In this document: positions 31,703 to 63,180 of the stretch, piece by piece | Layout: each line of letters begins with the position of its first letter | How positions within the stretch are numbered: position 1 is the first letter of the stretch | Assembly: GCA_017654855.1 (NCBI GenBank) | Contig: CM030336.1 | Location: 496,001-560,000, forward strand | Source of the DNA: Podospora anserina | Lineage: Eukaryota | DNA length: 64,000 bases | Direction: 5' to 3' | The notes under the pieces: generated by a model | The model's database searches: none | What the model saw: only the letters and a program-made list of their open reading frames with translations | Told to the model about the DNA's origin: nothing | Translations under genes and position numbers: made by a program

Positions 31703-33012
31703 ATGAAGCTCAACGCGACCCTCTTTGGTCTCACCGGCCTTCTCGGCCTGGCATTGGCCGCCGTTCCGATTAAGAACGATGGCATCTCGGCCGACATTGT
31801 TGTGCCCGAAAAGTACATCGTCAAGTACAAGGCCGACGCCGACGCTGGAAGAAAGAAGAAGCACGAGTCCGACATCACCAACAAGGCCAAGAAGAAGAAC
31901 AAGAAGGGTGTTGTCGAGTCCATCAACATCGACGGCCTTTCGGGATACGTTGCCGAGATTCCCGACTCGGAACTCAAGGAGCTGAGGGATTCCGACTTGG
32001 TGAGTGGGCTCTGACCCAAGCTTGGGAAAGATCATGCTGACAACCGGCCCAGATCGAATACATCGAGAAGGACACCGTGATCCAGATCAACGCCGTCGCC
32101 GCCCCTCGGGTCGCCGCTGACCCTGTCGAAGAGAAGCACCAGCTTGCGAAGCGTGCCTATGTCACTCAACTCCACGCCGCTTGGGGCCTGGCTCGCATCT
32201 CGCGCCGTTCCACCTGGAACTCCGGCTACTACTACGACAACACCGCTGGCCAAGGTATCCGTGTCTATGTTCTTGACAGCGGCATCCGCACCACCCACGT
32301 CGAGTTCGAAGGACGCGCCGTCTGGGGCGCCAACTTCATCGCCGGATCCCCCAACACTGACGAGTACGGCCACGGCACCCACGTTGCTGGCACCATCGCT
32401 AGCAAAACCTATGGTGTTGCGAAGAAGGCCACCGTTGTCGCCGTCAAGGTCCTCGACAAGAACGGCTCCGGCACCATGTCCGGCCTGATCTCCGGCCTCA
32501 ACTGGGTTGTGAACAACGCCAAGGCCCGCGGCATCGCCAAGAAGGCCGTCATCAACATTTCTCTCGGTGGTGGCTACACTGCCTCCGTCAACGCTGCTGT
32601 CAAGGGTGCCACTGATGCTGGCCTCACCGTGGTTGTGTCTGCCGGCAACAGCAACGCCAACAGTGCCAACTATTCCCCTGCCTCGGCTCCCTCTGCCATC
32701 ACCGTCGGTGCCATTGACGGTACTGGATACCGCGCCTGGTTCTCCAACTGGGGTAACCTCGTCGACATCTTCGCCCCTGGTGTCTCCGTTCTCAGCGCCT
32801 ACCACACCAGCAACACTGCCACATGGTACATGGACGGCACCAGCATGGCTGCTCCCCACGTTGCCGGTCTCGCTGCTTACTTCATCGCCAAGGAGAACCT
32901 GTCGGGCTCCCCTGCTGTGACCAACCGAATTCTTGGTGCGGCTGTCACCGGTAGTATCGGGGACCCCAAGGGCAGCTGGAACCGCCGTGCTTACAACGCC
33001 GGTGGTGCCTAA
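31703..33012 (+). CDS. Secreted subtilisin-like serine protease (S8A, proteinase K type) with I9 propeptide
   Basis: Exons 31703-31999 and 32053-33012. Signal peptide, propeptide ending AKR, triad motifs VLDSG / HGTHVAG / GTSMAAP, and oxyanion motif SAGN. Confidence 0.93.
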
Positions 33013-33463
33013 GCATGAGCCGCTGGTCTTAGGTTGTTTCGTTTGCGTGTTTCTAGATTTTCTTCTATCGCCTAGTCATGACTTTGATGCGGGTTCTTTC
33101 GGGAGGATGGAGAAGAGGGAAGGATTGTTGTTGGTCGTCGCTCCTTCAGTGTCCGGTTTCCTGTAATTGTACTTGTTATCGTCGATAGAGTTATGGGAAT
33201 CGATTCTCCCGTGGTCAAACTCTCGTATTCCCGGTCTAGGCCCATCCTCGATGTAGTCGTAATGCCGTGCTTGGCCAGCTGCAAGGCGCAAGGTGGTAAT
33301 CTTGGCCACGCCTAAATGAACTTCATGCCGCCACGTTAGCAGGCCACACGGCAGAGCAATGTGTGGGGGTAACAAACCTCTTGGATTTGTCAACTGCCCT
33401 TCATCTCTGCCGCAACTTCTGGAAACGCCAAAGTCATCAGACTCTAGTCGACTTGCTGTGAAC

Positions 33464-34846
33464 ATGACCGCTACAGGGCCTTCTCCCGTCATTGCTGACC
33501 CCTCTCCGCTGGGTTCCCCTCTCCCCTTCGAGTTTTCTGGCCGGACAGCGCCTAACCGCTTTCTCAAGTCGGCCGCCACCGAAAAGGTAGCCACCTATGA
33601 CCCAAACGACAGGCTCTCCAACGGCATTCCCAACGATGAGCTGTTCCAGCTGTACGGTACCTGGGCGTCAGGCGGCTTCGGCACAATTGTAACCGGCAAC
33701 ATCCTCATCGACCCTGACCACCTCGAGGGCCCCGGTAACATGATCATCCCCGTCGACGCACCGCTTGACGGTCCCCGCTTCGAAGGATTCCGCCGTCTGG
33801 GATCTGTCGGAAGACAACATGGGTCTCTCTTTATCGGCCAAGTCAACCATCCCGGCCGCCAATGCGTCTACGCCCTGCAACCCAATCCCATCTCAGCCTC
33901 TGACGTTCAACTGCTCGTCGACATGTTTGGTGCAACCTTTGGCAAACCGCGTGCTGCCACCATCGAGGAGATCCAATCGACCGTGGCGGCCTTTGTCCAT
34001 GCGGCGGTGTATCTCGACAAAGCAGGCTGGGACGGAGTCCAGCTTCACGGTGCCCACGGGTACCTCATCGCACAATTCTTGTCCTTGACCACCAACCTCC
34101 GCACTGACGCTTATGGCGGGTCCCTTGCCAACCGGGCGAGGATCATCACCGAGATTGCCGCTGGCATCAGGGAGCAATGTCGAAAGGACTTTATTCTCGC
34201 CATCAAGATCAACAGCGTCGAGTTCCAAGCCGATGGGTTCACCGTTGAAGAGGCGTCCGAGCTGTGCGAGATCTTGGAGAAGGCAGGCTTCGACTTTGTG
34301 GAGCTCAGCGGCGGAACATACGAGGAAATGGCGCTGGCGCACAGGCGAGAGTCGACCAAAGCCAGGGAGGCATTCTTTTTGGATTTCGCAGAAAAGATTG
34401 CGCCGCGCCTGAACAAGACCAAGGTCTATGTGACTGGGGGTTTCAGGACTGCCAAGGGCATGGCGGACGCGCTGCAGAGTGTGGATGGTGTTGGAATGGT
34501 GAGGGCTGTTTGCAACAATCCGAATCTTCCGGCCGAGATACTGGAGGGCAAGAAGACAGCTGCGCCGGTGATTGCTGGGGGGGTGTATTTTGACGATTTT
34601 CTTCTGACGGGGGGCTTGGCGGGGCTGCAGATGCGACTGATGGGGCATTCGTTGCCTGTGCTCGATGTTGAGGATGACGCAGAGGTCGAAGAGTTCAAGA
34701 AGGCGCTGGAGTCGAATCTGAAGGGACTTGTGAAGGGAGGGTTGTTTGAGAATATGGACCTTGGGTTTCTAGGGGCGAGAGGACCTGATGTTGAGAGAAG
34801 AGTGCGAGATATTCAGGCTTCCAGGGCCACACTGCGCAAAGGATAG
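33464..34846 (+). CDS. NADH:flavin oxidoreductase / old yellow enzyme family
   Basis: Motifs APNRFLKSA, GQVNHPGRQ, GWDGVQLHGAHGYLIAQFLS, NLRTDAYGGSLANRAR and VELSGGTYE. Confidence 0.9.
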   Translation: MTATGPSPVIADPSPLGSPLPFEFSGRTAPNRFLKSAATEKVATYDPNDRLSNGIPNDELFQLYGTWASGGFGTIVTGNILIDPDHLEGPGNMIIPVDAPLDGPRFEGFRRLGSVGRQHGSLFIGQVNHPGRQCVYALQPNPISASDVQLLVDMFGATFGKPRAATIEEIQSTVAAFVHAAVYLDKAGWDGVQLHGAHGYLIAQFLSLTTNLRTDAYGGSLANRARIITEIAAGIREQCRKDFILAIKINSVEFQADGFTVEEASELCEILEKAGFDFVELSGGTYEEMALAHRRESTKAREAFFLDFAEKIAPRLNKTKVYVTGGFRTAKGMADALQSVDGVGMVRAVCNNPNLPAEILEGKKTAAPVIAGGVYFDDFLLTGGLAGLQMRLMGHSLPVLDVEDDAEVEEFKKALESNLKGLVKGGLFENMDLGFLGARGPDVERRVRDIQASRATLRKG

Positions 34847-42935: not shown

Positions 42936-45029
42936 CTAATGCTCACAAAAGCTATACTCCTTCTCCCTCCACGTCGACTCGGCATTCTTTATAAACCCCG
43001 ACCTCTCCTTCATCAACTCCAGACGTTGCTCCTCGGCCTCCTTCCTGCTCATCGGCAACCCATCTCCCAACTCCTCCCGCACCATCTCCACCAGCTCAGG
43101 GGGCAGTTTCCACCCCGAAGCCACTTTACCGCTCGCCATAGCCGCGGCAAGTTCCTCCTTTGCCAATCCCCTCTCAAGCAAAATCTGGGCCATCTCCGCC
43201 GGGATCTTTCCCTCAGACCCAGAGTCAGCTGAGCCGGCCCGGCGGCGGAACGTCAGTTCAGCCCACCACTCAGCCTGCTGAGGCGGGACGTTGGCCGTGC
43301 TGATGATCCTCGTGAAGGGATCAACAAGCCAGAGGGCAATAAATCGCCTGTGCCCCGGTCTGGTCGAATCAGCGAGCTTGAACCCAGAGACCCGATGGTG
43401 GAACACGTTGGGGAAAGCAAGCATCCTCCCCTGAGGAGTGAGCACGCTGCCGTAGTGCTGAAGACAAGCCGAGCCGGAGCCAGAACCAAAAAACGCGCCG
43501 TAGACGCTCTGCATCCAGTGAAAGCCGTCTTGTCCAATGTTTTCAAACGGGCCCTCGTCTTGTAGGTAATCGTCTGTGCAGGTGCGGAACTCGAGCTGGC
43601 TCTCGGTGATGTTTTCCGAGTCGAGGTAGTACAGCGCGGTGCCGACAATGTGCTCGTTCATCATGCCCTCGACGTGCCAGCCGCCAGCTGGGAACTCTGG
43701 CTTCTCGGGAGTGAGCTCGATGGAGGCCATCTTGACGATGATCTGAAGACCGGTGTCTTTGAACTTGTGGCGGAGGGTTCTCTTTGGGGTGACGTCGTAC
43801 TTGACTTCGGGGATTTTGGACAAGGGCGGTGGCGGAGGGAAGACAGGCTCGCCTTTGTCCTCTTCGTCTTCGTCCTCTTCGTCTTCGTCGTTCTCCTCCT
43901 CCGCATCTTCCTCTTCCAAGCCCTCCTCGTCTGGATTGTGTATCTGCCAGTTTCCGACTCTCCCGACCCCCTTTTTGCTTTTATTGCTGGTCAAAGATTC
44001 CTTGGGCATCCAAAGCTCCTCATTTTCGTCATCAGGATTCTCAGGGATCATGCGAGGTTCCGTGCGGCCGGCGGCGATAGCCTTCCAACCACCATGGATC
44101 TGAGTCAGGCATTGGTCCCACATGGGCAGGGCCTTCTCAATCAGTTGTTCCAGGCTTCGGTATATGCCCTTGTACTTGACTGGGTGCAGGTTGTTGATAT
44201 AACTGGTGAATTTCACCCCCCCCTCTTCGGTGAACTTGACGTTTGCCGGTAGCCACTGGTAGTCGTCGGACCAATAGCTGTATTCAACGTTTTTCCCAAA
44301 CACAGACCTTCGAACGTTTGTCTGGGCACGGGTTTCGATCCACTTGGGGATAATAACACCCTTGCCAGCCCATTTATCAATGGCATCTTCCACTCCGACG
44401 ACTTCGTCCTCGAAGAAACGCGAACGGCCGTAGACCAAGGGATACATGGATGGGTGGACAAGATCCTGGACCGTTTCGTTCGTGTTAGGATGCCAGTCTG
44501 GATTCACCGCTTGATCGGCCTGTAGACGATCAAACCCCTCTTTCAGAGCAGCCTGAAGCTGAGGAGACACAAGAGTGTCCGACTTGACAGCCATGTAACT
44601 GGCATCGAGGGTGGGAACGAGGGATGTCCTCTTGAAGTATTCGGCTTTGTGGCGGAGCTCCTCGATGCAGTACTCGACCGAGGCATGGTCGAGAACGTTT
44701 TTGGCTCTTTTTGGGTACCAACTGTGGTCTCCCGATGGGTCGCGTTGGATGTGGTCGATGCGGTTCCAGAGGTCCTCCTCAGGCCAGGCCAGAGCCTCCT
44801 TGCGCCACTTGTCGGCGATGGCATCGTCAAAGACCTTGACGTGCCAATCAGGCTTGTCGGACAGGCGGTCCATGACTAGCATCATGGCCACCTCCCGGAC
44901 CGTGATGGGCGAGGATTTTTTCATGCAGTCTGGATGGATGCCCATGGGGTATTCGATGGCATTGTTGTCGGGGATGTGTCGCAAGTCTAGCTTCCAGCCA
45001 GGATAGCATTTTGCTTCCTTTTGTTCCAT
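42936..45029 (-). CDS. DUF4246-family protein (putative 2OG-Fe(II) oxygenase-like fold)
   Basis: Intronless ORF from MEQKEAK. Motifs DWHPN...QDLVHPSMYPLVYG, GGWHVEGMMNEHIVGTALYY and HHRVSGFKLAD..RPGHRRFIALWLVDP. Confidence 0.85.
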   Translation of the reverse strand: MEQKEAKCYPGWKLDLRHIPDNNAIEYPMGIHPDCMKKSSPITVREVAMMLVMDRLSDKPDWHVKVFDDAIADKWRKEALAWPEEDLWNRIDHIQRDPSGDHSWYPKRAKNVLDHASVEYCIEELRHKAEYFKRTSLVPTLDASYMAVKSDTLVSPQLQAALKEGFDRLQADQAVNPDWHPNTNETVQDLVHPSMYPLVYGRSRFFEDEVVGVEDAIDKWAGKGVIIPKWIETRAQTNVRRSVFGKNVEYSYWSDDYQWLPANVKFTEEGGVKFTSYINNLHPVKYKGIYRSLEQLIEKALPMWDQCLTQIHGGWKAIAAGRTEPRMIPENPDDENEELWMPKESLTSNKSKKGVGRVGNWQIHNPDEEGLEEEDAEEENDEDEEDEDEEDKGEPVFPPPPPLSKIPEVKYDVTPKRTLRHKFKDTGLQIIVKMASIELTPEKPEFPAGGWHVEGMMNEHIVGTALYYLDSENITESQLEFRTCTDDYLQDEGPFENIGQDGFHWMQSVYGAFFGSGSGSACLQHYGSVLTPQGRMLAFPNVFHHRVSGFKLADSTRPGHRRFIALWLVDPFTRIISTANVPPQQAEWWAELTFRRRAGSADSGSEGKIPAEMAQILLERGLAKEELAAAMASGKVASGWKLPPELVEMVREELGDGLPMSRKEAEEQRLELMKERSGFIKNAESTWREKEYSFCEH

Positions 45030-45748
45030 GTTGATGGCTGGTTTGTGGAATGGCTGGTTCGTGGAGGTAACGGCGTGATGCAGAATTGGCTGTCTAGAAG
45101 TCGGAGTGCTGAATGTCTTGACAGTCAGAAGTCGTCCAATATTTAACATGCTGACGGGGACGTGGTGTAGTTCTTGCTTCCCCTCATGATTGGATGGAGT
45201 TGTTGCTCTGCCTGAGGTTTGCCTGCTGGAGTGGGGATGATGCAGTGGTTAGCGCTGCTATGCCTGGCCTGCCTGGCTTGGCAGAATTGACAGGGGTCTT
45301 GACAACTGTTCGGAGAGTTCAATGCTGCCGCATCTGGAAATGGGTTCTTTTCTATACCCAAACGAGTCAAGGCCCGGTGACATGGTGTTGGAACAGAGTT
45401 GTTGATGTATTGAAGGAGAAAGTAGCTACTGAGTGCTACGGCAAGAGAAAAGAAACCAGCCCAGGTTGGCCCTGCTCGGCCAAATTCGGCAGCCAGAACA
45501 GCAAGTTCTGTACTCAATCTGTAATTCCCCAGTTTGTTGTCTTCCAGGAGGAACAAAGCTACCTATCTGCTCCACCGTATTATCAGTACCTATCGATTGT
45601 TGTTATCTTTGACGACGGGACGTCGGTGGATACCAGTCGTCAACCATGAAGTCTTTCTCATTGGTCATACCATTTATAGGTAGTGCTTGGCATCCGCTGC
45701 TCTCACCAAAACCTACGCGGGGCTGCCCACACACTTCAATGCCACATC

Positions 45749-46735
45749 ATGAAGTCCTCAATGGCGCCTGGAATTCTCATCACCTGCCTCGCAGGCACTG
45801 GCGCAGCAGCCGTGCTCCGCGTCTTGTACTGGGCATCGCAGTTCACCCTCTACCACTTCTGGCGACCTTCCAAACCCCTCGCGGCATACAAACGCGCCAG
45901 CGACGACAGCTACGCGCTCATCACCGGAGCCAGCGCCGGCATCGGTCTCTCCATCGCCCGCAACATTGTCAGACAAGGCTTCGGCGTCGTTCTCCTCGGC
46001 CATCTCCCGGACGAGCTCGAGTCGGCGGCCAAAAGTCTCAATTCCCCGCTTGTGCGAACTCTCGTCGTCAACGCCCGCACCGCGACCCCGGAGGAACTCG
46101 AGACGGCGGTCGAGTCAATCTCGGATCTCAACATCTCGATTCTCGTCAACAATGTCGGCGGTTTCCCCATGGCTGATCCGCCGTTGCGACCTCTTAGCAC
46201 CCTCAGCACGGCTGAAGTTGACGCCTACGTTGACTTAAACGCGCGGTTCATGGCGCGACTTACCAACCTCGTCCTGCCACTCCTTTCGTCAAGTTCTACA
46301 AGAGAGAAACATGAGCGGTCGCTGATATTGAACATCTCTTCGGCCGGGAGGGTTGGGATGCCTTGGATCGTCATGTACAGCGCCACCAAGGCGTTCAACT
46401 ACGCCTTCAGCATGGGACTGTCGCGGGAGTTGGAGGATGACTCGACTACGGCGCATATCGACTGCCTTGCTGTTACGCTTGGTGAGGTGCAGAGTCAGGC
46501 GAATGTGATGGCGGAGGGTGCGGTGACTGCTGAGAGGTTTGGGGGCTATGTTGTGGGGGGTATCGATGGGGCGGTGAAGCGGGGCTGGAGGGAGGTGAGG
46601 CCGTACTGGGGGCATGATCTCGCGCTTGGGTTGGCCGATCGGGTGTTGCCTGATGGGATGCTGACACATTTCGCGAGGGAGGAGCTGAGGTTGAAGAAGG
46701 AGAGGTGGGATGCGATTATGGCCAAGAGGCGCTGA
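45749..46735 (+). CDS. Short-chain dehydrogenase/reductase with N-terminal membrane anchor (17beta-HSD / ketoacyl reductase-like)
   Basis: Motifs ITGASAGIG, LVNNVGG, NISS and catalytic YSATK. Confidence 0.88.
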   Translation: MKSSMAPGILITCLAGTGAAAVLRVLYWASQFTLYHFWRPSKPLAAYKRASDDSYALITGASAGIGLSIARNIVRQGFGVVLLGHLPDELESAAKSLNSPLVRTLVVNARTATPEELETAVESISDLNISILVNNVGGFPMADPPLRPLSTLSTAEVDAYVDLNARFMARLTNLVLPLLSSSSTREKHERSLILNISSAGRVGMPWIVMYSATKAFNYAFSMGLSRELEDDSTTAHIDCLAVTLGEVQSQANVMAEGAVTAERFGGYVVGGIDGAVKRGWREVRPYWGHDLALGLADRVLPDGMLTHFAREELRLKKERWDAIMAKRR

Positions 46736-49646: not shown

Positions 49647-49983
49647 TGTGACGAACCCCTGTACAGAACCTCTGAAAGGGATACGGGTTGAAGGTAACTT
49701 CTGTCAATTGGTTCGGTGCAGCTAAACAGTGCACAACAAGATGTCTCAACGTAAAGACAAGATACCGTGAATACAATTGTGAATTGCATACTGCGGAACT
49801 GTCTATCTACACCAGCCAGTTCCTCCGTATATATAGAACTTGGGACCTTAAGGTGCTCGCCCTGCTACGGCCCCGATCACCCTTAGCACATTGCATCCTG
49901 CGATGTGCTCGTCGTGCTATGCCTCCGATCATCCTTAGCATCTTGCATCCTGCAGAGTGCTCGTGGGTCTTGGCGCCATAGCA
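49647..49983 (-). mobile_element. Solo LTR, same family as 40950-41387 but with a different 5' half
   Basis: 49647-49835 is the reverse complement of about 41198-41387. Beyond the TATA box the sequence is unrelated and ends ...CATAGCA (TG start on the minus strand). Flanks GAAAG / GTGGC are not a TSD. Confidence 0.8.
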
Positions 49984-50235
49984 CTTTCGGCACATCATCT
50001 TCCTTGAGGGTCGGGGAGAAAGGTTTCGCGTGAGGAGCAGAGTTATTCCGGAGGCTGAAGACGCAGAGAGGAGATTGTGAGCAAACACCGGAGGCGGTAC
50101 GATGGTGGGGACGTTCAAGTCGTACATTTTGTAGATACCAATCCCTTGGACGGAAACGATAATGCAGGTCCAGACGAAGCTCACCAAGGCCGCACCGTGA
50201 ACGATCATCGGCATTGGGTCATAGTGAGTAGTCAT
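49984..50235 (-). pseudogene. 5' fragment of a glucosylceramide synthase (ceramide glucosyltransferase)-like gene, truncated by an LTR
   Basis: Exons 50235-50126 and 50054-49984 give MTTHYDPMPMIVHGAALVSFVWTCIIVSVQGIGIYKILRNNSAPHAKPFSPTLKEDDVPK. This is a TM helix plus the stretch that precedes VTIIRPVKG in fungal GCS. The LTR starts right after. Confidence 0.6.
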
Positions 50236-50536: not shown

Positions 50537-53500
50537 CTAACACCTCCAGTAGCAGTCCATCCGTCGGCTCTGTATGTAAGAATTTCGTCAGTCATCTGCC
50601 ATATCTTCTAGACAGTCTTCAAAGGGGGATTAACTTACCGGTTGAAGATGATTAATACCATCCCACGAGTTCTCATCCCATGCTCCTACCCGACAAAACG
50701 GCATTCTGCTTTCGTCCCTGTTCCCGCTCGACCAGTGCTGGTTGCCGGCTGTGAAGTAAAGATCAAACGACATGAACAGCCTCCTTCTCTCGAGGTTCTC
50801 GCCCGGTGCCGGCCTGTCCCTCTTGAAGTTCACAGCTCCCTTTTCCTTGCGAATATCAACCTGAAGATCCGTCGGGAATCTCGAGCTTGCCTTGTACCAC
50901 GTCATCGAGATGCCAAAGTCCGTATTTGCCGATTCGTAGTTCTGTCGTACTTCGTTGATATAAGAAGTGACTTCCATAAACATTGCGTTGGCGTTAGAGG
51001 TCCAGCTGAACCAGTGGTGCTGGGCGATGTGGATGCGACATGTGGCTGGCTGCGGCGCTGCTGTTGGGGTAGGTTGTGCCGTGGGAGTAGGGACTGCCGT
51101 TGTCGGCGCACAGATGGTGACGTCCTCGCAGGTCTCGCGACCACCACTTCCTACGCAGCGCCGCGTCGTCGTCTTGGGACAGTTACCGAGGTCTGGCGCT
51201 CCTGTCAATGTCGGCATCGGAGGCCTGGTGACCTTGTGCGCTGGGTCCTCCGGGTCGTGATAGTCGGGGGGTGGCCCGACCGGCGTCGGCGTGCAGTAGT
51301 AACCGGTGCATATCTTCCCGCACTGGCCGTCTCGTTTCCCAAGTCCAATGGGCTTGTTGCAAAGGGGTCCGGCAGGTCCGGGCTTGTGTTCGATAGGATC
51401 TCCGCTTGGCCCACCACCGCCACTGCCACCACCGCTGTCACCACCACCGCCGGGGGGGCTAAACAGCTTATCTGCGTCTGGTTTCTTGATGTCCTCAATC
51501 TTAGGGCAAACCTTGTCCAGCTGCGCATTACCACCTTGGCCCTTGGCCTCGGTGGTGTCAAGGAGGCAGTGGCCAAGGTTAAACACTTGACCATTCCACG
51601 CTGTGCTGACCAAGGTATCGATCTTGCCCACTGGAATCTTTGGCTTTGCAGGGTTCTTGTCGGGTTTTCCCATAGGGAGAGGCCGGGAAAGTATCTTGAT
51701 GAGGGCCTTGAGGCGTTTCGGATCCTTGAGGTCCTCCTTCCACTTTGACGGCAAAGAGCGGAGATTGGCAGCCATTGCTGCAACCAGGGGTGCCGCTGTT
51801 GGAGGGTTGAAAAGTCAGCTATCGTCCACAGACAGCAAATTGTCGTGGGAAACTTACCCATTGAGCTTCCGTCGTCCGTCGCGAAACCCTTTCCAGGAAC
51901 AGCGATGTAAGTCTTTTCACCTGGAGCATAAGTAACCCATCTACCGGCAGACTTTGCGTCAGTAATCATGGCCTGCAATATATTGAAAAGGAAGATCATG
52001 AGAGCTTACTGTTGGTAAGGGGCGAAGGTTGCTACACGCTGACTTTGCTGCACTGCGCCCACCGAAAGGACGTTGCTGAGGTAGTCGGCGCGAGAGACAT
52101 CGCCCCAACCGGCTGGGTAAGCATCAATGTTATCACCTCTCTCCTTGTAGGAATTGTGGATAGCGGCGACAACGAGCACGTTATACTGGCCGAGCTTCTT
52201 GATAATTTTGTCTGTGGTTGCGATGCACTGTCAGTATATGGTCGTTATTCTGCCACGTCCTTGGCAAACTCGGAGTTGACTCACATAGCATCCTGATCCT
52301 GGCCTCGCTGGCACCATCCGTGAACATGCCGCCAGAATAGTTGATGATGGCTCGGCCTTCCTTGTTGTTCGCAGAATCAAGAATGTCATCCATAACTCGT
52401 ATAAATGTCTCAAGCACGGCTGCTTCCTCGAAATGTCTGGTTTTTGCGCCTGAGTTGCCTGTGTAGGTGAATCCACTCCCTGGGTTGACTGGCAAGACCA
52501 TGGTGACCTCTCTGCCGGCCCCGAGGAGGTTTCCGAGAATCTTGGATGAGACAGCGGTTCCGTGCTTCCAATCGAAAGCGGAGACAGGCTTGGGTGTTTT
52601 CGCGTCGCCACCGTACGGCGACGAGTAAGGCCACCTGATCAAGCGCCCGCCTAACCCTTGGAACTCCTGTTCAAAAAGTCAGATCTATGCTGTTCAATGA
52701 CACCAAGCCAGGTGAAAGATGGGTAGACTTACTGCATGGCTGGTATCTATGTCCGACTCCATATTGTATATGTACTGCGTTGGGCCAGTGCCTTTGGGGT
52801 ACCAATATTTGTTGAACCATCTGTCGGGTTTCTTGGGGTCCTGCTTTCTTGCTGAGGTCCCAGACCTCCTCCATGACTGAAATCCTGTGTACAAGGGAGG
52901 TGCCGAAAGCTGAGAAAGCTCCCAATACTCCGCCGTTTCGTGTTCCCCATAGTCGTTCCTCTTACGAAGGACTCCAGAAATAGTCTCATTGAGGTCGCGA
53001 TGAATATCTGGTATCTCAGTTGAAGAGGTAAGGTTCCCAGGTGACTGATCTCGGGAGAAGTGCCGAGGAACAACTGCTGGGCCGCCACCACCGGACCCAG
53101 GGAACTTCCCCTGCCAGATATCGGTAACAGGCCGTGGCGTTTTAGCGTCCGCCAATGCCGTTTTGGCCTTAGCCTCTGCATTCATCTCAGAGAGGTAGTA
53201 TATGTCGTCAATCTGAAATCACACTTATTAGCTCCTGTCCTTGCGCTCGACTTTGATAAAAGTAAGAAAGATAATCGGAGGTAGCTGGCTGGCTGACTTA
53301 CACCGTAGGTCCCTTTGGCGCCACTAAGTGTGTCCAAGCTTGCACGGTCAAGCTGGACAACGTGGAAAAAGGCAGTAAACTTCGCCCTATCGGACTTGAT
53401 CTCTGTGTATGACCATGGCTGCTTCTTTGGGTTATTGTTGACGTCCCTGAGCCAGGTGCGGATGGCCTGGACATTTTCAGGGTTGTCAGGTATGATTAAG

Positions 53501-56500
53501 GCATCCCCAATTTGGCATGGGCTCTTCTTTTTGGCTCTAGCTTGCAGGAACGGTCGAGATCTCTCCTCGAGGGTACCAGCAGCTCCTTGAACTGGGGTTG
53601 GCGTTGCGACAACCTCGCGCTTTGCCACCGGGGTGACAGTGCAACCATCAAAAGTCTGGGTCGACGAATTGTCATCCTCCACCTCGCATCCGTAGATAGT
53701 AGCGCATGTCTCCTTCGTCGTAGACGAGGTCGTTCTGGTTGTGCCACCTTCCACAACGCCGGCGTACGAAGTCGTCATCTTGCAAAGCTCGGCGGTCTGG
53801 GTCTTGCAGTTGCTCGGCTTCTCGGGTGTGGGAATCGGGCCTCTGGTCGGTATTGTGATGGCTGGCCATTTTGGTAGACGTCCCTTGACCGTGATACCGG
53901 GAAGCTTTGGCCAGTCGATATTCGGGGGACCACTCCTATAGGGCCCGGGGGGCAGAGGAGGGAAAACCCAACCGAAGACCTTGAGTTCTGGCCAGTCGAT
54001 GCAAATGAAGAAGAACCAAGCCTTGCACGACAGGTACACACCCGCGGGCTCGTCATCGTCATCGTCGGAATCTTGAGGGTCGTCTTCTCTTGGCGGATCC
54101 GGCACTGGCGTGGTGATGGGCTGAATGATATTACCTGAGCCTGTAGGAAATGGCTTGATATCAGGAGCCTGTGTCCCCGTGAACAAAGTGCAGCCAATGA
54201 GAAGTGTGCTCTCAGGAGGTGCATCCATTGCCTTCGTTCCCGTAGGTGCGCACCCGCCCAAAGTTACTTGACCCTGGCAATTGTCAAGCGTCAAGATGGC
54301 GTGAAACTCATCAATCTCCAACACGCCACCCGGCGGGCAGTCCCAGACCATTGGAGGTCCAGATCCTAGAGGAGGTCGATCAATGATTGGATTTTGATCA
54401 TCAGATGGTAGGTCGCTGTTGTCTGGAATGTCGACTCCAGATGGGTCGTCAGGCAGCGGGCCATCTGTCACTGACGGCCAGGGCGGAAGAGTAATCCATC
54501 GCGAAGTTGGCGGTGCACCACCCCCTGGAGGCGTGACGACGACGGGAATAGGGGGGATATCAATACTTGGGTTGGCGTAGAAAGGGGGAATGCCACCGGC
54601 ACCACCGCCATTTGTTGGATTGGCGATGGTAATATTGACATTGGACATGGGCATCTCATTTGTCGTAATGTTGGGCGCATAGACGGTGATGGTCGTCGTT
54701 TCGACGACAAATGATGCACCCTGGCTGCGGCCCACCTCAATGGATGTTGTATAGGGTGGAATCGAGATTACCGTTGGTGCCGGGAGTGAGCTGGGTGGCA
54801 AGATAAGACGGCAAGGCGGCGTACAGTAGGCAGTCCTTTCGCGGTACACCTCGGTCCCCAGATAAACGACTTCGACATCGTCCTCGTCTAAACTGGCGTC
54901 GGGATACCACTCTTGCAGATCGACTGCCCAATCAGTGGTGCCCAGGAAATTGTACGAGTGGTAAAACTCGGTTCTCTTGTCCTTCATCTCGTCGTCCATC
55001 CAGGCCACCCATTCTGTGTTGTCATACACCATGATGTTGGAACCTTCTTTGTTGTAGCGCTTGTTGGCCCTGCCTTGAGCAATGATCTGGTTGATCTCGG
55101 CGTTTGAGATGTATCCAGCAGTGTCCGTACACCGACCTTTGGCAGCATGGGAGTTGCGGTTGTCGCCCGTGAACAGGCAGGACTCGCCGTCGCACCCAGC
55201 CTGGGCCATCTTGAAGGACCGTCCGTAACTGGAGACACCAACCAGGACCTTGTTGGAAGGGGCACCCGCCTTGGTAATCATGGAGAGCGCGTCCCTGGTC
55301 TCAGTCTCATTGACATGTGACCGCAAGCAATTGCCCGTCGGGCAGCCAGGCGAAGTCCACTTATTACCAGCATCCCACTGGCCGTGAAGATCATAGGTCA
55401 TAAAGACAATATAGTCGAGAGCTTGGGCCATTTGCTTGACAGGAAAGGAGCGGAGGTACCAGAACGACGCTGGTGCGGCGAACGAGACTGTCTTGGAATC
55501 GCCGACCTCGGCCTTGATGCTGGCCAAGAGTCTGTAGTAGTTGAGACCATTTACCGGATCATCAGCGGGAATGTCCGGGATGTCAGGGGCACCTGGATAT
55601 TCCCAGTCAAGGTCGATGCCGTCAAGGTTGTGCTCGTTGATGAAGGAGATGATGTTGCGCTTGAACAGGTCGCGGTTGGCTGGTTGGGCGGCCTCGCGGA
55701 GAATCATGAAGGTCTCTGGCAGAGCACTGAAGTCCCAGCCACCTAGAGATACAACCTTCTTGACGCCCTGAAGCTTCTTGAAACGTTCAAACTGCTTCTT
55801 GACTAACGGGTCCGTGATCTCGATCCGGAAATCGCCTCGCGTGACATTGGGAAAGGCAAAGTGAACGTGGGTGTAAGTGCTTGTGTCGATTTGGGTAGCA
55901 TCCATGTGCAGGCACTTGCGGCCGAAGTTCCAGCCCTCAAAATAGCCAAGCTTGATATGCTTTGCCGGCGCGGGGCCCTTGATGATGTCTCTGCCGCAGT
56001 TGCTGATGCATCCGTGCTGGCCAGGAGCTGCAGTACCGGGGGCACCAGTCTCGGACTTGGAAACGACACAGAAATCATCGGTCATACCGCATTGCCCCCA
56101 AATGTTGCAGCACACGTTGAGAGGGCACGGGTTCATCGTGCTGATGTTGGTCCCTAAGGGGGGCCGGACGGTGCCGTTCATGGTTGGTCCACAGATTGCG
56201 TTCTACCAAGCCGAAGCAGGTCAGTATAGGAAGTGGAAGAAGCAGTTTGCCTTGGGTTGACTTACAGGGACAATAGCAGGCATCGGCGCAGCTCCGTCGC
56301 TGACGCACATGTTGAAATCGGGATAAAGCAACTTGCAGCCATTCCAACCCCATGTGTTCTTGTTGAAGTTCTCCAGTTGGGTCACACTGAGCATGTTGCT
56401 TGCAGCAATCTTGGCGCAGTTGTCGTCCTTCTTGGTCCGATAGACGGCACAATAGCCATCGGCACCCTTCTTGGGCCTAAGGTCGGGAAGGTTGCCCCGG

Positions 56501-57895
56501 CTGCAGCACACATGCTGACCTTCGGACAGTTTGGAGCAAAGCCCGGACTGAGGATTCGCCTTGGTGAAGTCATCGCCAGTAATTCCCTGTACGTTGTATT
56601 GTCAGTCTCTCTTTTGTCCACGACGTGCGTAGGTCAAGCGGAAAGTAAGTTTAACTTACGCATTTGTTGGCCAATGAGCCACAGTCGTCGCCCAACACAA
56701 CCTGGCGCGTCTTACACGTGCCGTCAGAGTTTCCGGGGGGGAGGGTACTGGGGAGGGTGCCGGTGCTGCAGCAGACGCGCTCGCCCAGAACAAGTGAGTT
56801 GCAGAGGTTGGCGCGGTTGAAGTTCTGCAGTTGAGTCTGCGAGATGCCACATCTCTGGGCCACAGCCCAGCAACCCTCGCCGGCCTGGACGGTAGTGACC
56901 CTGCAATCAGCTCGGGGGCTGAGCCGGGCGAACCTGGCAAAAATATCTCCAGGCGCGGAATGGCGAGAGCTGGCGGTGCTGTTGGAGATGGTGTCGTTCT
57001 TGGACAACTCCTCCAAGGGAACAGGAACGCGCAGAGTGACCGGCATCCAGTCCTGGCCCGCACCCACCTGTGAGACACATTTGCCATCAGCCCATGTCTT
57101 GACCACCTCCTGGACGAAATCGAGATTCTTGGCGCTGCTGGCGACGATGCCAATGCTGTAATCGGCACCACGATCTTTGGCACCACACAACTGCACCACG
57201 GTGGTTCCTGAGACCGACTCGTTCTGAACATGCTCGAGGAATTGCTGAAGGACATCTGATGTGACACCGTGCTGGTGCACTTCAGCGCCGGCAAAAACAC
57301 CGATGACCGACGTCTGCGAGTAGCCAAAGGCCATGGCGTTGTTGGAGCATGACGGCTTCTGAGAGGCAAGATAGCTCTTGACCTGACGACCAGCTGATAG
57401 CAGATGGGTCGGCGAGAACTCGCCGTCTTTACCGGGCCGGTGAATGGAGATGGAGGCATCCTCCAGCACTTTGTTGGCGGTGGTACAGAGCGATGCCTTG
57501 GTCGAGTCTGGCACGAAAGCAACCCTCATGGACGGAGAAGTGTCGTAGTCTGCTGTGCAGGCCCTGATGACGGTGGGCATGTCCTTGACCTCGGCCATCT
57601 GGACAACCACATTGAGCAGCATGGTCTCCTTGCATGACGCCAACTGATCCGCCTCCGGGAACAGGAACCAGGGGCCCTCCCCGGCTTTGCTGCAAGAAAT
57701 GGGGCATGGCTTGAGGGCCTCAAGAGGCTGCGCCTGTACCGCAGAGAGCCATTTGTCGAGATCCTCGTCTGCTTCGGTGATGTCGACGAAAGAACTTGAG
57801 GATATAAAGGACTGGTCTGTGGCCACGAACCCGCCCGTTGCTCTCGCTGCCCCCGCTGCCCCCGAGGCTACGAGGGCGTAGAGATATGCCTTCAT
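50537..57895 (-). CDS. Giant secreted subgroup C (killer-toxin-like) chitinase fused to a subtilase-like domain: signal peptide-3xLysM-CBM18-GH18-linker-S8-Cys-rich C-terminus (~2264 aa)
   Basis: Nine exons: 57895-56660, 56586-56266, 56202-53302, 53212-52733, 52666-52285, 52211-52010, 51940-51858, 51795-50639, 50569-50537. All eight introns are GT-AG, 62-89 nt, with branch sites and matching phases; 6795 nt in total. CBM18: CPLNVCCNIWGQCG. GH18: SLGGW and DGIDLDWEYP. S8: HGTAVSS, IINYSGG, AAIHN, GSSMAAPLVA. Confidence 0.85.
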
Positions 57896-59965
57896 GATAA
57901 ACGACGAGATAACTGCGTGCAGCAGGTTCTCTCAGAGAGGAGATGTGATGGGAAAAAAGTGTGCCTTGCACCATCCAGGGTTGGATGACGATGCCAGACA
58001 GAATGACCTCGGGAGTAAGAGGTGAGTAAACAAAGAATGAGATACCAAATAGACAACAGACAGACTAGCTTGTAGATCATGGGTGAAGCAATATAAAAGG
58101 GAAAACGAGCATGATCTCTTTCAGCCTTGAGGGTACGTACCCAACTGAAAGCTGGCCACCGTCAGTTTACACTAGCACCGGCGATATAGACACCCCGGAA
58201 TTTGTGTTCTTGAAAATGATTGGTATATCGCAGCAACGGTTCCTAGTTAGACATGTACCTGTGTATCCATATGCGAGAATTTGAACGAGGAATTGGCCTC
58301 CGCACAAACATACCTTAGCTGGAATACTACAGTTCTTTTGCGCACATTTCCACCTTGCTCTTCGGATGATCAAAATGCAAGGGGTGACCCCTGAGTGCCG
58401 TTGTGAAGAACCATCATCATGGTTGATCTATCGACATGAGCCAAGTAGACACGCTAGTATCAAAGTGTGGTTAGGTAGGCTGCAAGGTACCAGACAAGGT
58501 GATAGAATGCAACCGGTACATCGCGCCCTCAAATTTACCGTTGGCTCTTCAAGTTGGGGATTTGTTAAGTAGCTAGGCTGTGACTGTTGGATGTTAGTGG
58601 TGGCATAATGCAACGTCGGACGGGCTAGAAACACAAAGCTGGGGATAATGCCTTACCTAGCGTGGGTTTCTCAGGTACTAAAGGGAACCGAAGGAGCACA
58701 AGTCCATGAGGTGGATCTAGTTGAAATCCATATTTTTATCGGATTGTGGGTATGCCAATCTCTTTGAGTGGCTTTCTCTGTAACTCCATCGGCGTGGAGC
58801 TCGGTCCACACTACATGAAGGTGTCGCATCCGCGGCAGATGCACCTTCGTTCACGGGTTTGGGTCGTTTGGATCAAGTGCAGCTCAAATCTTTGAAAATC
58901 AACTGTCAAGTCCCGGGTCTGGTGGCAGTCTGGATCTTGATCCATTGGCGACGCAAACGTTGCGGATGGTGGACTAGTATCACACATCTAATCGGATTAG
59001 ATGATCAACAAGAAAAAAGTCATGAAGGACTTGCATATGGTCTGAACCCTGCATATTCACATCTGAAGTCTTGATTCTCTATTTATGTGAAGACACCTTC
59101 CTGATTGGTCTCTAGGTGGAGTGGACGAGGCTCAGTTTTCAACTATTACTTTTTCTTCATCTTGTTGGTCGAAGCCTGCTGCTGTGCCCCTACCAAGCCA
59201 TATGATAAACGAGAAGATATACGCTGCGCCACCTCAATAGGTCGGTTTGTCGGCAGACTCAGCAGCCGTGCCGAAACAACCCAATTTTTTTTTGGCCTAC
59301 ACTACGACTCTGGCCTCGTCAGGCGTTGTGTCAGCATGCCACTGGGGATTTTACCACATGATGAAAATATCTTCTTAGCTGGCAGCATTTTCCCGGCGAT
59401 CACACTGTTGGCGGGAAGCTGAGGAAGTTCAGTACCCACTGTGTCCTCGTCCCGTCCACTGGGCATTGTCAACAGGGATCTAATCCGCCTTGAGACCAAC
59501 CAACCGGAAAGGAAACGGTTCACAGAACAGTAGATAGGTCTGGCAAATATTTCGTTCGGATCCGGCCGCTATGGTCGCATTGTCTCAAGTGATACACTGT
59601 TCTGTGCCTAATGTAACTTCAATCCCATGTCGCGATTATACAGTTACTATGTGGGTTCGTTAGGTATGGCTATGCATGGCTCTTGTTCCAATCGTCCTAT
59701 TAAGATTCGGTATGGAGTCATGTATATCCACTTGTAGCTCCATTGAGGGCCTAGCCTCGGCGGACTATGAATGGCTTCAAGGCTCAGTGCTCGGAACAAT
59801 GAGACTCTGCGCTGACATCCGGCCAGAAGAGAGCTTGTCCAGTCCTGCTGGTTTATATAATGAGCTGAAATCCTTCGGTATCTCGGACCTGAAGACTTGT
59901 CCACCAGGCTCTCTCTTCAATCCGAGTCCACCAGCCAACCGGGTCATCATCTCTACTCAGTCACC

Positions 59966-61353
59966 ATGCTGTCTTCTGCGTACGCTCTGGTTCTGGCCGC
60001 CGGCCTTGTCACGGCTGGGACTACTGGCAGACATGCATCTTTGTTGGAAGCACGCGATGGCCCATTGCCATCGCTGCCCTACGACCCCAAGACGTCGAGT
60101 TACTGCACCTGGTGGGCTGATGTCAGGTCGGCTACCACCTGCGACGCTATTGTCAGCGAGAACTTTATTTCCTTGGCTCAGTTTAGACAATGGGTAAGTC
60201 TTCTGAAGCAGCACTTTGGGCTGAGTTAGTCCCTTACTTGTTCGGAGACCTTTGCTGACTTGTTTGCTAGAATCCTTCCCTCTCTGCTACTTGCTCGGTA
60301 GAGGTCGGGAAGTCGTACTGTGTTGAGGCTTACGGCGAACCTGCGCCGGGTATCTCTTCGACCAAAGCGGCAACCACCACCACTCCGTCCTTATCTACCG
60401 TTGTTCCTCCAGTGACCACTACGACACCCGGAAACGGCATCACCACACCCACTCCCACCCAGGCCAGCATCGTCAACAACTGTGACGCCTTCCACTTTGT
60501 CACGGCCGGTCAAACGTGCGAGACGATTGCCTCTCTATACCGTATCTCCCAGGATCAGTTCAAGGCATGGAATCCCAATGTTGGCGCGTCATGCACCGGA
60601 CTCTGGGCCAATGCCTATGCTTGCGTGTCTATCATCGGCCATGAACCGTCGCCCACCACACCCGGGAATGGCATCGCCACCCCCACGCCTACTCAAGCCT
60701 CCATCGTGAACAACTGTGACGAGTTCTACTTCGTCGCAGTTGGTGACACCTGTGAGATCATTGCGGCAAAACATGGTATCACCCAGGCTCAGTTCCTCAG
60801 CTGGAATCCGAGCGTGGGCTCAACCTGCACTGGACTCTGGGCCAATGCCTACGCCTGCGTCTCCATCATCGGCCACACCCCGACTAAGCCGAGCACCACC
60901 ACCAGCGTCGGCAACGGTATTGCCACCCCGACGCCTATTCAGCCGAATATGGTGAAAAACTGTGACTCGTTCTACAAGATCAAGTCTGGAGACACGTGCG
61001 CCACCATCGCCGCCTCCAAAGGCGTCACCGTGGCGCAACTGACCACTTGGAACCCCTACGTCAAGTCCGACTGCACTCTCCTGTGGCTCGACTACTACGT
61101 TTGCATTTCCATTGTCGGACACACGCCCACGCCCGTCAACCCAGGCAATGGCATCCAGACACCCACCCCTTACCAGAGCGGTATGACCACCTCGTGCAAG
61201 ACTTTCCACTTCGTCCAGTCTGGTCAGACCTGCCAGACCATCACTCAACGCTACGGAATTACCCAGGCCAACTTTGTCAAATGGAACCCGGCAGTCAAAA
61301 ACGACTGCACTGGCATGTGGGCAAATGCCTATGTTTGCGTTGCTGTCCTCTGA
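59966..61353 (+). CDS. Secreted multi-LysM effector-like protein (5 LysM domains, ~436 aa)
   Basis: Exons 59966-60193 and 60271-61353. Signal peptide, then repeated C..F..V..G.TC..IA...I....F..WNP.V...CT.LW...YACV fungal LysM units separated by GNGI.TPTP.Q linkers. Confidence 0.92.
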
Positions 61354-61920
61354 ATAAGGGGCGCAGTCAAATGTTAGGATTGTAGCTATGTCTATCCACT
61401 GTTAAGAAAGCATCAATGGCATGTAGATGATCGGATGGATGAACAGAACCTTGATCCCATATGATGCTGTGCTTTGGTTGCGCGTGATTCTGTGTTTCGC
61501 ATGTACCGTGAATAGATCTCTTATGGAATGCCCTGTGAACCTGAAAATGAACATGTTCAAGTGATGTCGAGTTTGAAGTGGCACTTACAGCCGTGGTTCG
61601 CTCTCAAAAAGGGAGCGATGTCACGGCGGACGGCGACGCTTGATCAACCTGCCTAACTGAAGGTGGCTTGGCGCAGACGCTTGGGCCACCGCGTCGTTTT
61701 ACTGGCAAGGCATATCCGTATATAGTGGACGGCTTGCCCTTTCTCCAACACTGTTAACACGAACTCCACCACCAACCAACCATCCCTGGAACCACAATCC
61801 CAGATACCGCGCTCTCGATTTGTGGTAGGACTCTACAGTCCACAGTTTACCTTTTTTCAACGGACTCTCCAAAGTAAAGGGAGCCCTTTCTGTATCCACA
61901 AGCAACGCTCACAACCTACC

Positions 61921-63180
61921 ATGTCGGAAATGGCCAGCCCAGTGTCGTTAACCACCCTCTCAACCGAACTCCGCCACAAAGTCCTAGCCTCTGTGATTTG
62001 GACATCAACAGCAACGCTCTATAATCACCTCGACCTATTTTTCCAAGATCCTCGGGTCCGGCTCCGCGATGACTGGGACATTTGGGTACCAACCACACCA
62101 CCTCAACCACCCGCTCTGTCACTCCTCTTGACATGCCGGATCCTGCACTATGACGTCCAGTATCTATTGAATTCATCCACTGCCCAATCCCACCCCTATG
62201 AGATTGACGTCGTCTTCATTGCCAAATGCGGACTTTTCCCAACCTGGGTGTGTTGTCCACTCCCAAGCCAGATCAACCTCGACACTCTCCAGGCGTCATT
62301 CCGCATAATGGACGTGGAGGATATCGACGACGAGGTACCAGCAGGAAGGCAGGGGGAGTTCTTAAGCCGTTACCGCGGTGTATCGTCTGACTTCGATGCA
62401 GACAACTACCCAAATCCTCCTCCCGGCTCATGGAACTTCTATCGCCTGTTAGCGTCCTTCCTGGCCTTGGGGCCTCGGGGCCTGACCTCTCCCGCTTATC
62501 AAAGAGAAAATCGCGGCTGTCTTTCAAGAAGCAGATACTCACTCCAACATCTCATCATTAGCGTAACATCTAAGGAGGAAACTGAAATGGATGACGAAAG
62601 ACGGGAGCGAGCAAGTGGACCAAGGCGGTTCTTACTTGACCACAATTCCGACCTGCCTTACGGAGCCTCGAGAGAAGATGACGTTTTTCCAGGGCCGCCT
62701 GACAATTCTCCATACACATGGACAGGCCCCACCGAGTTGGAGACCGTTAGAGGGATGTATGGCCACGCGGGCCGTCTCACCCTCGGACACGCCGACCGCT
62801 ATGGCTTGTACCTTGCCAACACCCTCTGGGCCCTGCTTGACTTCAAGTGGCTCTCACGAGGCTTCGGTCTTATGGTGTACGAAAGCATCCTTGACGACAT
62901 TACCTTTTACGTCGACGGGGAGCCAAGACCTCACTTTGGCATGGACGACTTGCTTTCCCTGGAACCCCTAAAGCACCGCACCTTGACACCGGAGGTCGCA
63001 GCAGCCCTTCAAGTCTGGAAGGAGTGGGTAATGAAGTGGAGGAGTAAGCTACGGGAGCGTGGTATGTTGGATGAACCACGCCCGAGTTTTGCTTTTGTGA
63101 GATACTTGCCGGCATCGATGGCAGATCCTAATGAGTGCCCAGAGTCAGACTCGGATTCTATGTCCGGCTCAGACGTATAG
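61921..63180 (+). CDS. Hypothetical intracellular protein with an F-box-like N-terminus
   Basis: Intronless ORF of ~419 aa. Motifs SLTTLSTELRHKVL, ALSLLLTCRILHYDV and YEIDVVF...LFPTW. No signal peptide. Confidence 0.7.
   Translation: MSEMASPVSLTTLSTELRHKVLASVIWTSTATLYNHLDLFFQDPRVRLRDDWDIWVPTTPPQPPALSLLLTCRILHYDVQYLLNSSTAQSHPYEIDVVFIAKCGLFPTWVCCPLPSQINLDTLQASFRIMDVEDIDDEVPAGRQGEFLSRYRGVSSDFDADNYPNPPPGSWNFYRLLASFLALGPRGLTSPAYQRENRGCLSRSRYSLQHLIISVTSKEETEMDDERRERASGPRRFLLDHNSDLPYGASREDDVFPGPPDNSPYTWTGPTELETVRGMYGHAGRLTLGHADRYGLYLANTLWALLDFKWLSRGFGLMVYESILDDITFYVDGEPRPHFGMDDLLSLEPLKHRTLTPEVAAALQVWKEWVMKWRSKLRERGMLDEPRPSFAFVRYLPASMADPNECPESDSDSMSGSDV

Follow-up and report, generated by a model that had tools for sequence, protein, structure and literature searches.

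The 64,000-nucleotide stretch of Podospora anserina that we analysed (NCBI GenBank assembly GCA_017654855.1, contig CM030336.1, positions 496,001 to 560,000; hereafter the window, in whose own coordinates features are given) carries on its minus strand, at 50537..57895, one real spliced nuclear gene. It encodes a giant protein of 2264 amino acids (aa), about 245 kDa, in which chitin-binding modules, a chitinase, a subtilase-like domain and a variable terminal domain follow one another in a single chain. Comparison with relatives indicates that it belongs to a family with a common plan: a head that binds and cleaves a structural polymer of the fungal wall, a conserved trunk marked by the aromatic motif WFF(F)xC, usually a propeptide and an S8 domain, a Cys anchor, and a Ser/Thr/Pro-rich linker leading to a tail, the terminal domain being ~100-170 aa long and hypervariable across the family. 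The head consists here of three LysM repeats, a CBM18 and a GH18 chitinase, that of many relatives is a GH55 beta-1,3-glucanase, and heads and tails alike are exchanged among relatives. The reading that we favour, and to which we give about even credence, is that of a secreted polyprotein of a Pezizomycotina family that would be aimed at fungal cell walls and built like polymorphic toxins, with the terminal domain as a variable effector. Surprising as they are, the architecture and its modularity stand on firm ground; the function is put forward in the conditional.

Several lines of evidence argue for a single gene. First, the list of stop-to-stop open reading frames (ORFs) gives eight consecutive minus-strand pieces between 57931 and 50630, and a splice-site scan with translation yields, once eight introns are removed, a single frame of 2264 codons in nine exons, which runs from an ATG at 57895 to a stop codon at 50537-50539 and contains no internal stop, just as the original prediction, made from the letters of the stretch alone, had proposed. 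The introns lie at 56659-56587, 56265-56203, 53301-53213 and 52732-52667 (introns 1-4) and at 52284-52212, 52009-51941, 51857-51796 and 50638-50570 (introns 5-8). Second, the frame breaks coincide exactly with GTAAGT, GTGAGT or GTAAGC donors in a fungal donor-site scan, and in every case a branch site (CTGAC or CTAAT) and then a YAG acceptor lie within the next 58-89 nucleotides (nt). An AAG acceptor at 51952 was tried for intron 6 and discarded: it breaks the frame, which the acceptor at 51941, confirmed by contig joints, restores. Third, among the contigs of four public runs (X1 to X4, whose RNA nature is guessed, none being recorded as RNA), those of X1 contain exact joints for all eight introns, with CT..AC ends on the plus strand; introns 5-8 are also joined in X2, and intron 4 in X3. 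The simplest reading of these X1 contigs, from which the eight introns are missing, is that they represent spliced transcripts. The joint that matters most is that of intron 3 (53213..53301, 89 nt, GTAAGT..CTAAT..CAG), at the junction of the chitinase half and the protease half, which the original prediction had singled out for checking; its joined form (53212/53302) was found on an X1 contig with flanks of 328 nt and 56 nt and a depth of 4, and the short side of this contig overlaps the next one, which continues through introns 4 and 5. Fourth, a Sordaria macrospora protein annotated as 'hypothetical protein' (SMAC4_09600, 1747 aa; P0175 among the relatives, which are cited here by such handles), found in the 90%-identity cluster around library protein P0021, aligns with aa 542-2264 in a single high-scoring segment pair (HSP) at 82% identity and ends in ...CYWTC. 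It matches both GH18 (expectation value, E, 3.9e-45) and Peptidase_S8 (57.2 bits, cut-off 21.8) in Pfam; its N-terminus begins within CBM18, and its gene model probably lacks the true 5' end. The Cercophora samala protein P0005 (2304 aa) is likewise collinear with aa 947-2264, to which it is 68% identical, and the alignment passes the exon 3/4 junction without a break. Because the joints are seen in contigs and the orthologue P0175 is a single gene, we conclude that this is one gene. Apart from these joints, a contig of X3 departs from the window exactly at the intron 1 donor (56661), where its next 55 letters are similar, though not identical, to the beginning of exon 2; it could stem from the spliced transcript of a paralogue or a divergent allele.

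That two adjacent genes, a chitinase and a protease, were wrongly joined, or that the locus is a decaying pseudogene, is therefore very improbable. One could point out that with intron 3 unspliced the chitinase frame stops 38 codons on, that the junction occurs in one contig only, and that several database models (P0006-P0008) stop at or before the S8 domain. However, the joint has exact canonical ends and runs into spliced downstream exons, the 2264 codons hold zero stops, and independent annotations are continuous across the junction in Sordaria, Cercophora, Aspergillus and Rhypophila. The GH18 models P0006-P0008, which end before or inside S8, look like truncated annotations, because P0007 ends at the acid motif, the very place where this gene has intron 4.

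The order of domains that had been claimed proved correct, save that the supposed linker behind the chitinase has to be re-read as a conserved domain. Pfam was run on unspliced pieces of the gene, of which those of exons 1, 4, 5 and 8 and of the trunk gave LysM alone at E<=5. A predicted signal peptide (aa 1-19, MKAYLYALVASGAAGAARA, 57839..57895), suggested by the composition of the translation, precedes an N-terminal Cys-containing domain (aa 20-330, 56906..57838), in which Pfam at E<=5 finds no match, Hce2 included, and which is common to the GH18-headed relatives P0006-8, P0015, P0126, P0135 and P0142. Three LysM-like repeats follow (aa 331-377, 393-441 and 458-508; 56299..56905), the second being split by intron 1. 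The claim of three LysM repeats stands in full for the first (Pfam E 4e-6) and less firmly for the third (18.1 bits, sub-threshold), while the intron-split one is recognised by internal repeat similarity alone; the repeats also resemble those of a neighbouring LysM-only gene. Then come CBM18, a hevein-like chitin-binding module (aa 523-589, 55993..56193; Pfam Chitin_bind_1 E 2.9e-6, 27.8 bits, which equals the cut-off), and the GH18 chitinase domain (aa 596-946, 54922..55974; PF00704 E 1.1e-45, 157 bits, cut-off 29.6). The latter has the intact motif that had been attributed to it, DGIDLDWE at aa 713-720, DxxDxDxE being the definition of the GH18 catalytic motif. Behind the head lie the trunk (aa 947-1381, 53617..54921), from VEVVYLGTEVY to an AKR dibasic site, with the aromatic motif CKAWFFFICIDW at aa 1245-1256 and CATIYGC at aa 1352-1358; a propeptide-like segment (aa 1382-1571, 52958..53616) that spans intron 3, is bounded by AKR/E and RKR/N, has no Pfam match (E<=5) and, we assume, resembles I9 propeptides; and the subtilase-like S8 domain (aa 1572-1960, 51521..52957), across introns 4-7. 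The C-terminal part comprises a Gly-rich spacer, a clade-specific GKR/D site and the Cys anchor CGKICTGYYCTPTPVGPPPDYHDPEDP (aa 2027 onward; 51221..51520 together), a Pro/Thr linker with a small 4-Cys module (CPKTTTRRCVGSGGRETCEDVTIC; 51041..51220), and a terminal domain that we call type A (aa 2121-2264, 50540..51040; CRIHI...FCRVGAWD...CYWRC), which has four Cys and an internal FKR/D and spans intron 8.

The segment first described as a long Pro/Thr/Cys linker is thus a conserved trunk of ~435 aa, the best-conserved non-catalytic part of the protein. It has no Pfam or PDB match and no usable ESM Atlas match. A search with aa 960-1486 in a representative library of 1.84 billion proteins, clustered at 50% identity, returned 220 proteins at E<=1e-3, of which 126 reach E<=1e-10 and 19 reach E<=1e-30; these tallies are of representatives, not genes, and many matches are ORF fragments. 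Related trunk proteins are named in Podospora, Colletotrichum, Xylaria, Hypoxylon, Paracoccidioides and Paramyrothecium. When 52 proteins of at least 900 aa were probed with segments of our gene model and of P0005, a GH55 head preceded the trunk in 20 of the 52, 15 of them with an S8 probe match, and a GH18 head in 15, with an S8 probe match in six (three Aspergillus species, Rhypophila, P0040 and P0046). The identity of the alternative head is clear: that of P0005 matches the beta-1,3-glucanase 5m5z of the PDB at E 1e-177. Its trunkB part is nevertheless 86% identical to ours, and the point of exchange lies directly after the catalytic head, where ...DEDD/VEVVYLGTEVY here corresponds to ...ASDD/IEVVYLGPEVY in P0005. 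Trunk, pro-S8 and Cys anchor form a cassette that stands behind GH18 or GH55 heads in other Pezizomycotina.

At the other end of the cassette, the anchor is common to 33 sequences, including this gene, as ..I[TS]F.SG....PTC.....CG(G)xxCxG[FY][FYW]CxPxPxGxPPxYxDPxDP, and beyond it lie Ser/Thr/Pro-rich stretches, optional small Cys modules and then the terminal domain. The 4-Cys module of our gene occurs twice in P0005 and three times in P0002. A further Cys-rich module (CDDKCKLDNGNPCNCNENGCD...SPxCC...C.W.WTGGGGG), which this gene lacks and which matched no Pfam family, stands between the anchor and several tail types in P0005, P0003, P0013, P0016, P0017, P0019, P0020, P0052 and P0061. Among the 31 members with at least 80 aa past the anchor, BLAST sorts the terminal domains into 17 mutually unlinked groups, of which 11 have a single member (a link being an HSP at E<=1e-3, of at least 50 aa, within 60 aa of both C-termini). 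The supposition that the same core might carry different C-terminal payloads is borne out by these 17 unrelated groups, and extends to the heads, GH18 and GH55 being swapped too. Tail type A was grouped with those of P0005, P0170 and P0171, to which other searches add P0172, P0003 and P0175; it follows a chitinase head in our gene and in its Sordaria orthologue, but a glucanase head in the Cercophora protein P0005. No orphan copies of tail or anchor occur elsewhere in the 64-kb window.

The tail also diverges faster than GH18, trunk and S8, as pairwise identities show. Relative to the Sordaria orthologue, identity is 92% in GH18, 89-91% in the trunk, 86% in S8 and 84% in the anchor region, and drops to 55% in the linker and 69% in the tail; this last value is the same as that of our tail to the far more distant Cercophora tail. 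Since recognition loci also diverge quickly between close species, the tail could instead be a recognition tag on a self-directed protein of wall remodelling or recognition, acting in hyphal fusion, branching or allorecognition. The relatives, mostly saprotrophic or plant-associated Sordariomycetes and Eurotiomycetes, would suit such a role. Pfam, however, finds no known het or allorecognition domain in the gene, and we regard this explanation as improbable.

The subtilase assignment had to be approached through relatives. The S8 domain is split over five exons in this gene, and its best single piece scores 16.6 bits against a Pfam cut-off of 21.8, the other pieces having no match; in P0175, whose S8 region is 86% identical, Pfam gives 57.2 bits, and in P0005 E 1.6e-13 and 51 bits. 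A motif alignment with the relatives places the His, Asn and Ser motifs at KHGTAV (H1681), INYSGG (N1755) and GSSMAAP (S1867). HG[TS] and GxSxAxP occur at subtilase spacing in 21 of the 23 members that match the S8 probe, the pattern failing to capture P0018 and P0052. The original call of an S8 subtilase therefore stands as far as these motifs and the Pfam match of the orthologue go, and falls short at the acid position, to which we return below. Beside this set there is a second subfamily of nine proteins (P0062, P0064, P0073, P0076, P0086, P0092, P0097, P0124 and P0137) with the canonical VY[IL]xD[ST]G. It matches in the trunkB part only; the six members scanned have no Pfam-recognisable head, and three of them (P0076, P0097 and P0137) have Peptidase_S8 at E<=0.001. 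P0154 was scanned as well, and nothing matched. This subfamily may represent additional head types belonging to the same system.

Four dibasic sites had been noticed between or within the modules, and all four are present, at aa 1379-1382, 1569-1572, 2021-2024 and 2192-2195; wide conservation holds for the pre-S8 site alone. In 18 of 22 GH-headed members the S8 acid motif is preceded, at a distance of 47-63 aa, by a [KR]R site (RKR/N, aa 1569-1572, in our gene), which lies ~10 residues ahead of a conserved YWELSQ(L/I)S; such placement is usual for the junction of propeptide and mature protease. At the trunk end, 35 of 64 sequences have a dibasic site at most 110 residues after the CxxxxGC motif, here AKR/E. 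Tail A has an internal FKR/D-type site that every homologue of this tail retains, save P0003, whose alignment has a gap there. We considered the KR site just before the anchor (GKR/D) as a general release site and rejected it, as it is confined to this clade.

Taken in the sense that we favour, these features would fit together as follows. The protein would enter the secretory pathway and be cleaved at the KR site before S8, by kexin and/or by its own S8 domain, and possibly at other dibasic sites, the propeptide holding both halves together for a time. The head would dock the complex on the chitin of another fungus's wall and loosen that wall, and the part made of protease, anchor and tail, or the tail alone, would be freed at the target wall, where the terminal domain would act as the variable effector, or payload. 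Secretion, processing, target organism and toxicity of the tail are all putative here, as is the protease activity that we attribute to the S8 domain from its motifs.

A number of observations weigh against this reading. First, the column of the canonical catalytic Asp is occupied by E1638 (IYNMESD), with D1640 two residues on, and the Asp-His-Ser triad is not present in its canonical form. The departure at the acid position is a family trait: in 24 rows of the GH-headed type the acid column has D in four, E in eight and N or G followed by E in nine, the remaining three being missed by the search pattern. The protease might accordingly be inactive, or unusual. Second, the GH55-headed P0034 and P0035 consist of head, trunk, anchor and tail without S8, and S8 is therefore not essential to the family plan. 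Third, no tail matches a known toxin or Pfam family among 14 full relatives, P0175 included, and this gene in pieces. The sole Pfam signal in a tail is a sub-threshold MU117 in P0041, and the type A tail has no PDB sequence match at E<=10. Five GH55-headed relatives gave GH55 and S8 matches only in the PDB (for P0017, among the best 60 of 74 matches). The best score of the tail in the ESM Atlas, 0.81, is no match, and AlphaFold2 (AF2) models of it have low confidence, with a predicted local distance difference test (pLDDT) score of 47 from the single sequence and 42 from a six-sequence alignment. Fourth, no gene resembling a gamma-toxin or an immunity gene was recognised in the flanks of our gene, where ORF scans show a LysM-only gene, an ORF of 484 aa without a Pfam match and a small membrane ORF; since toxins of this kind are too divergent for sequence search (10.1101/2024.10.25.620242), one may have escaped notice. 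The release of a toxic C-terminal effector, as originally envisaged, thus finds no backing, either in a toxin family matched by the tail or in a gamma-toxin or immunity gene nearby. Fifth, the key junction at intron 3 comes from one contig of one run of presumed RNA nature, and the family tallies count 50%-identity cluster representatives, many of them fragmentary. Finally, fungal glycoside hydrolases bear their carbohydrate-binding modules (CBMs) in a like arrangement, as variable Cys-containing domains that follow Ser/Thr/Pro linkers.

This last point leads to the main rival explanation, a wall-digesting multi-enzyme serving nutrition, mycoparasitism or autolysis, in which chitinase or glucanase and protease would jointly attack chitin, glucan and the proteins of the wall, and the tails would be substrate-binding or lectin-like modules. 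Both head types are indeed hydrolases of wall polymers, S8 retains its His, Asn and Ser motifs, and the tails match no toxin family and follow Ser/Thr/Pro-rich linkers as CBMs do in fungal carbohydrate-active enzymes. Yet the tails match no CBM or lectin family either, the heads already have LysM and CBM18, and 17 unrelated tails on one core, a Cys anchor and fast divergence of the tail are more typical of conflict proteins than of modules that bind two invariant polymers. We consider the multi-enzyme unlikely on balance, if by some way the most serious of the competitors.

The neighbourhood bears on another possibility, that of a classical zymocin-type carrier, in which chitinase and trunk would deliver a separately encoded gamma-toxin through a disulfide, with S8 and tail as accessories. 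About 2 kb upstream of our gene lies a divergent LysM-only gene (59864..61353, plus strand), made of two ORF pieces, 59864-60229 and 60271-61353, the first encoding a hydrophobic leader at its N-terminus; it probably has one intron near 60230-60270, and Pfam finds LysM at E 9.6e-29 in four stretches. LysM-only genes have been described beside C-II chitinase genes, which are told from C-I by their LysM, by Heneghan, Salzberg and Wolfe (bioRxiv 10.1101/2024.10.25.620242), and the combination of LysM, CBM18 and GH18 with such a neighbour follows the C-II pattern. Moreover, our protein ends in Cys (...CYWRC), and a terminal Cys is kept in 29 of 31 cluster chitinases that adjoin a gamma-toxin gene (10.1101/2024.10.25.620242). 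The terminal Cys sits here, however, in a tail domain with four Cys and is probably paired internally, and ORF scans of 46.8-50.5 kb and 57.9-59.9 kb showed no small secreted gamma-toxin candidate with a leader. That not all C-II chitinase genes adjoin toxin genes (10.1101/2024.10.25.620242) is also to be set on this side of the balance. The chance of a carrier of this kind is in our view slim, a little below that of a self-directed protein.

Other features of the flanks deserve mention beside the effector that we favour. The ORF 61726-63180 (plus strand; 484 aa stop-to-stop, first Met at ~61921) has no Pfam match and resembles P0003 over residues 458-692 of the latter (32% identity, E 4e-16). 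In P0003, a model that looks chimeric, this stretch comes right after a tail-A-like segment (292-451). Given this two-locus association, the ORF might encode a partner linked to tail type A, and is a candidate for its immunity gene. Directly downstream of the big gene, a small minus-strand ORF (49800-50235, ~95 aa, one hydrophobic stretch), starting at 50235, has a 71-nt intron at 50055-50125 that is joined in one X1 contig. Further off, an ordinary and separate subtilase gene (32041-33012, plus strand; Pfam Peptidase_S8 E 8.5e-38) is 23% identical to the S8 domain described here and adjoins an ORF for an Old Yellow Enzyme-type oxidoreductase (33320-34846). A DUF4246 protein (42936-45248, minus strand, E 1e-151) and a short-chain dehydrogenase (45680-46735, plus strand) are ordinary neighbours with no evident link.

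Among the closest known systems are the C-II 'killer toxin-like' chitinases: they share signal peptide, LysM, CBM18, GH18 and the very large size of a secreted protein, and their clusters share the LysM-only neighbour, a nuclear gene with introns and the C-terminal Cys. Our protein differs in carrying propeptide-S8, Cys anchor and variable domain in the same chain after the chitinase, and its neighbourhood showed no recognisable gene for a separate gamma-toxin or for immunity. Toxin genes also adjoin other hydrolases, GH71 and xylanase-like (10.1101/2024.10.25.620242), which offers a precedent for the exchange of heads; the words subtilisin, protease, peptidase and GH55 have no occurrence in the main text of that work. 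The zymocin of Kluyveromyces lactis, made of an alpha/beta precursor chitinase and a gamma anticodon nuclease (PMC3482391), offers by analogy a chitin-binding chitinase precursor with dibasic processing that brings a toxic subunit to another fungus, and the notion that what follows the chitinase is a hydrophobic carrier part. Its genes lie on a cytoplasmic linear plasmid and have no introns, and its toxin is a separate polypeptide, whereas we find one chain with an added protease. The GH55-headed proteins, unnamed database predictions annotated as hypothetical or 'pectate lyase superfamily / glucan 1,3-beta-glucosidase' proteins with Peptidase_S8 (Cercophora samala P0005, Podospora conica P0001 and examples in Colletotrichum, Xylaria, Hypoxylon and Paracoccidioides), have the same trunk, propeptide, S8 and anchor, with the glucanase replacing LysM/CBM18/GH18; we found no study of them. 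More generally, neither a fusion of GH18 or GH55 with S8, nor the trunk, nor the anchor turned up in our search of the full-text literature on zymocin-like clusters, fungal subtilases, LysM, skin-associated fungal genomes and bacterial polymorphic toxins (supplementary tables and subscription reviews lying outside this search), in agreement with the original impression that no such chitinase-subtilase fusion had been characterised.

The bacterial polymorphic toxins, which with the zymocin-type toxins of fungi offer the nearest parallels in function, are the system that our favoured reading invokes. Subtilases are listed among the proteases that process them (Zhang et al. 2012, PMC3482391), and an S8 peptidase both processes such toxins and has been shown to activate a diffusible one (PMC9424270, PMC13556192). 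Together with these polymorphic toxin systems with S8 (S8-PTS), they share with our family a conserved N-terminal targeting part, a pre-toxin junction, exchanged unrelated C-terminal domains and an associated subtilase. The differences are that the proteins described here are eukaryotic, would be exported by the secretory pathway, have wall glycosidases as heads, show no known toxin fold in their tails and have no demonstrated immunity gene, and that the peptidase, a separate gene in S8-PTS, is here in cis. Polymorphic toxins are recognised by a conserved N-terminal part with many exchangeable unrelated C-terminal domains, which is what the 31 members have, and by C-terminal domains that are known toxin folds or of shown toxicity, and no tail among those of the 14 relatives scanned and of this gene matched a known toxin family. 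A bolder proposal is that of a true eukaryotic polymorphic toxin system, in which heads and toxic tips would recombine around the trunk, the in-cis subtilase (as releasing peptidase) and the anchor, and the tips would be new toxin folds with linked immunity genes, the whole being a fused, protease-armed counterpart of zymocin. We hold this proposal tentatively, as a possibility short of even.

If the favoured reading is right, killer-toxin-like chitinases would be one face of a larger modular weapon family of filamentous fungi, in which the targeting enzymes for the two main wall polymers are interchangeable and at least 17 unrelated and uncharacterised end domains form a reservoir, with candidates for new antifungal protein folds. 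It would provide a eukaryotic parallel to bacterial polymorphic toxins, including their processing by subtilases, and would explain the large size of subgroup C chitinases, which ORFs put at 150-250 kDa (PMC4392113). Even if the tails are binding modules, the trunk, the Glu-for-Asp subtilase and the swap of GH18 and GH55 heads at ~70% identity are new. The family matters for genome annotation too, several relatives looking truncated at introns, and for the biology of fungal wall enzymes.

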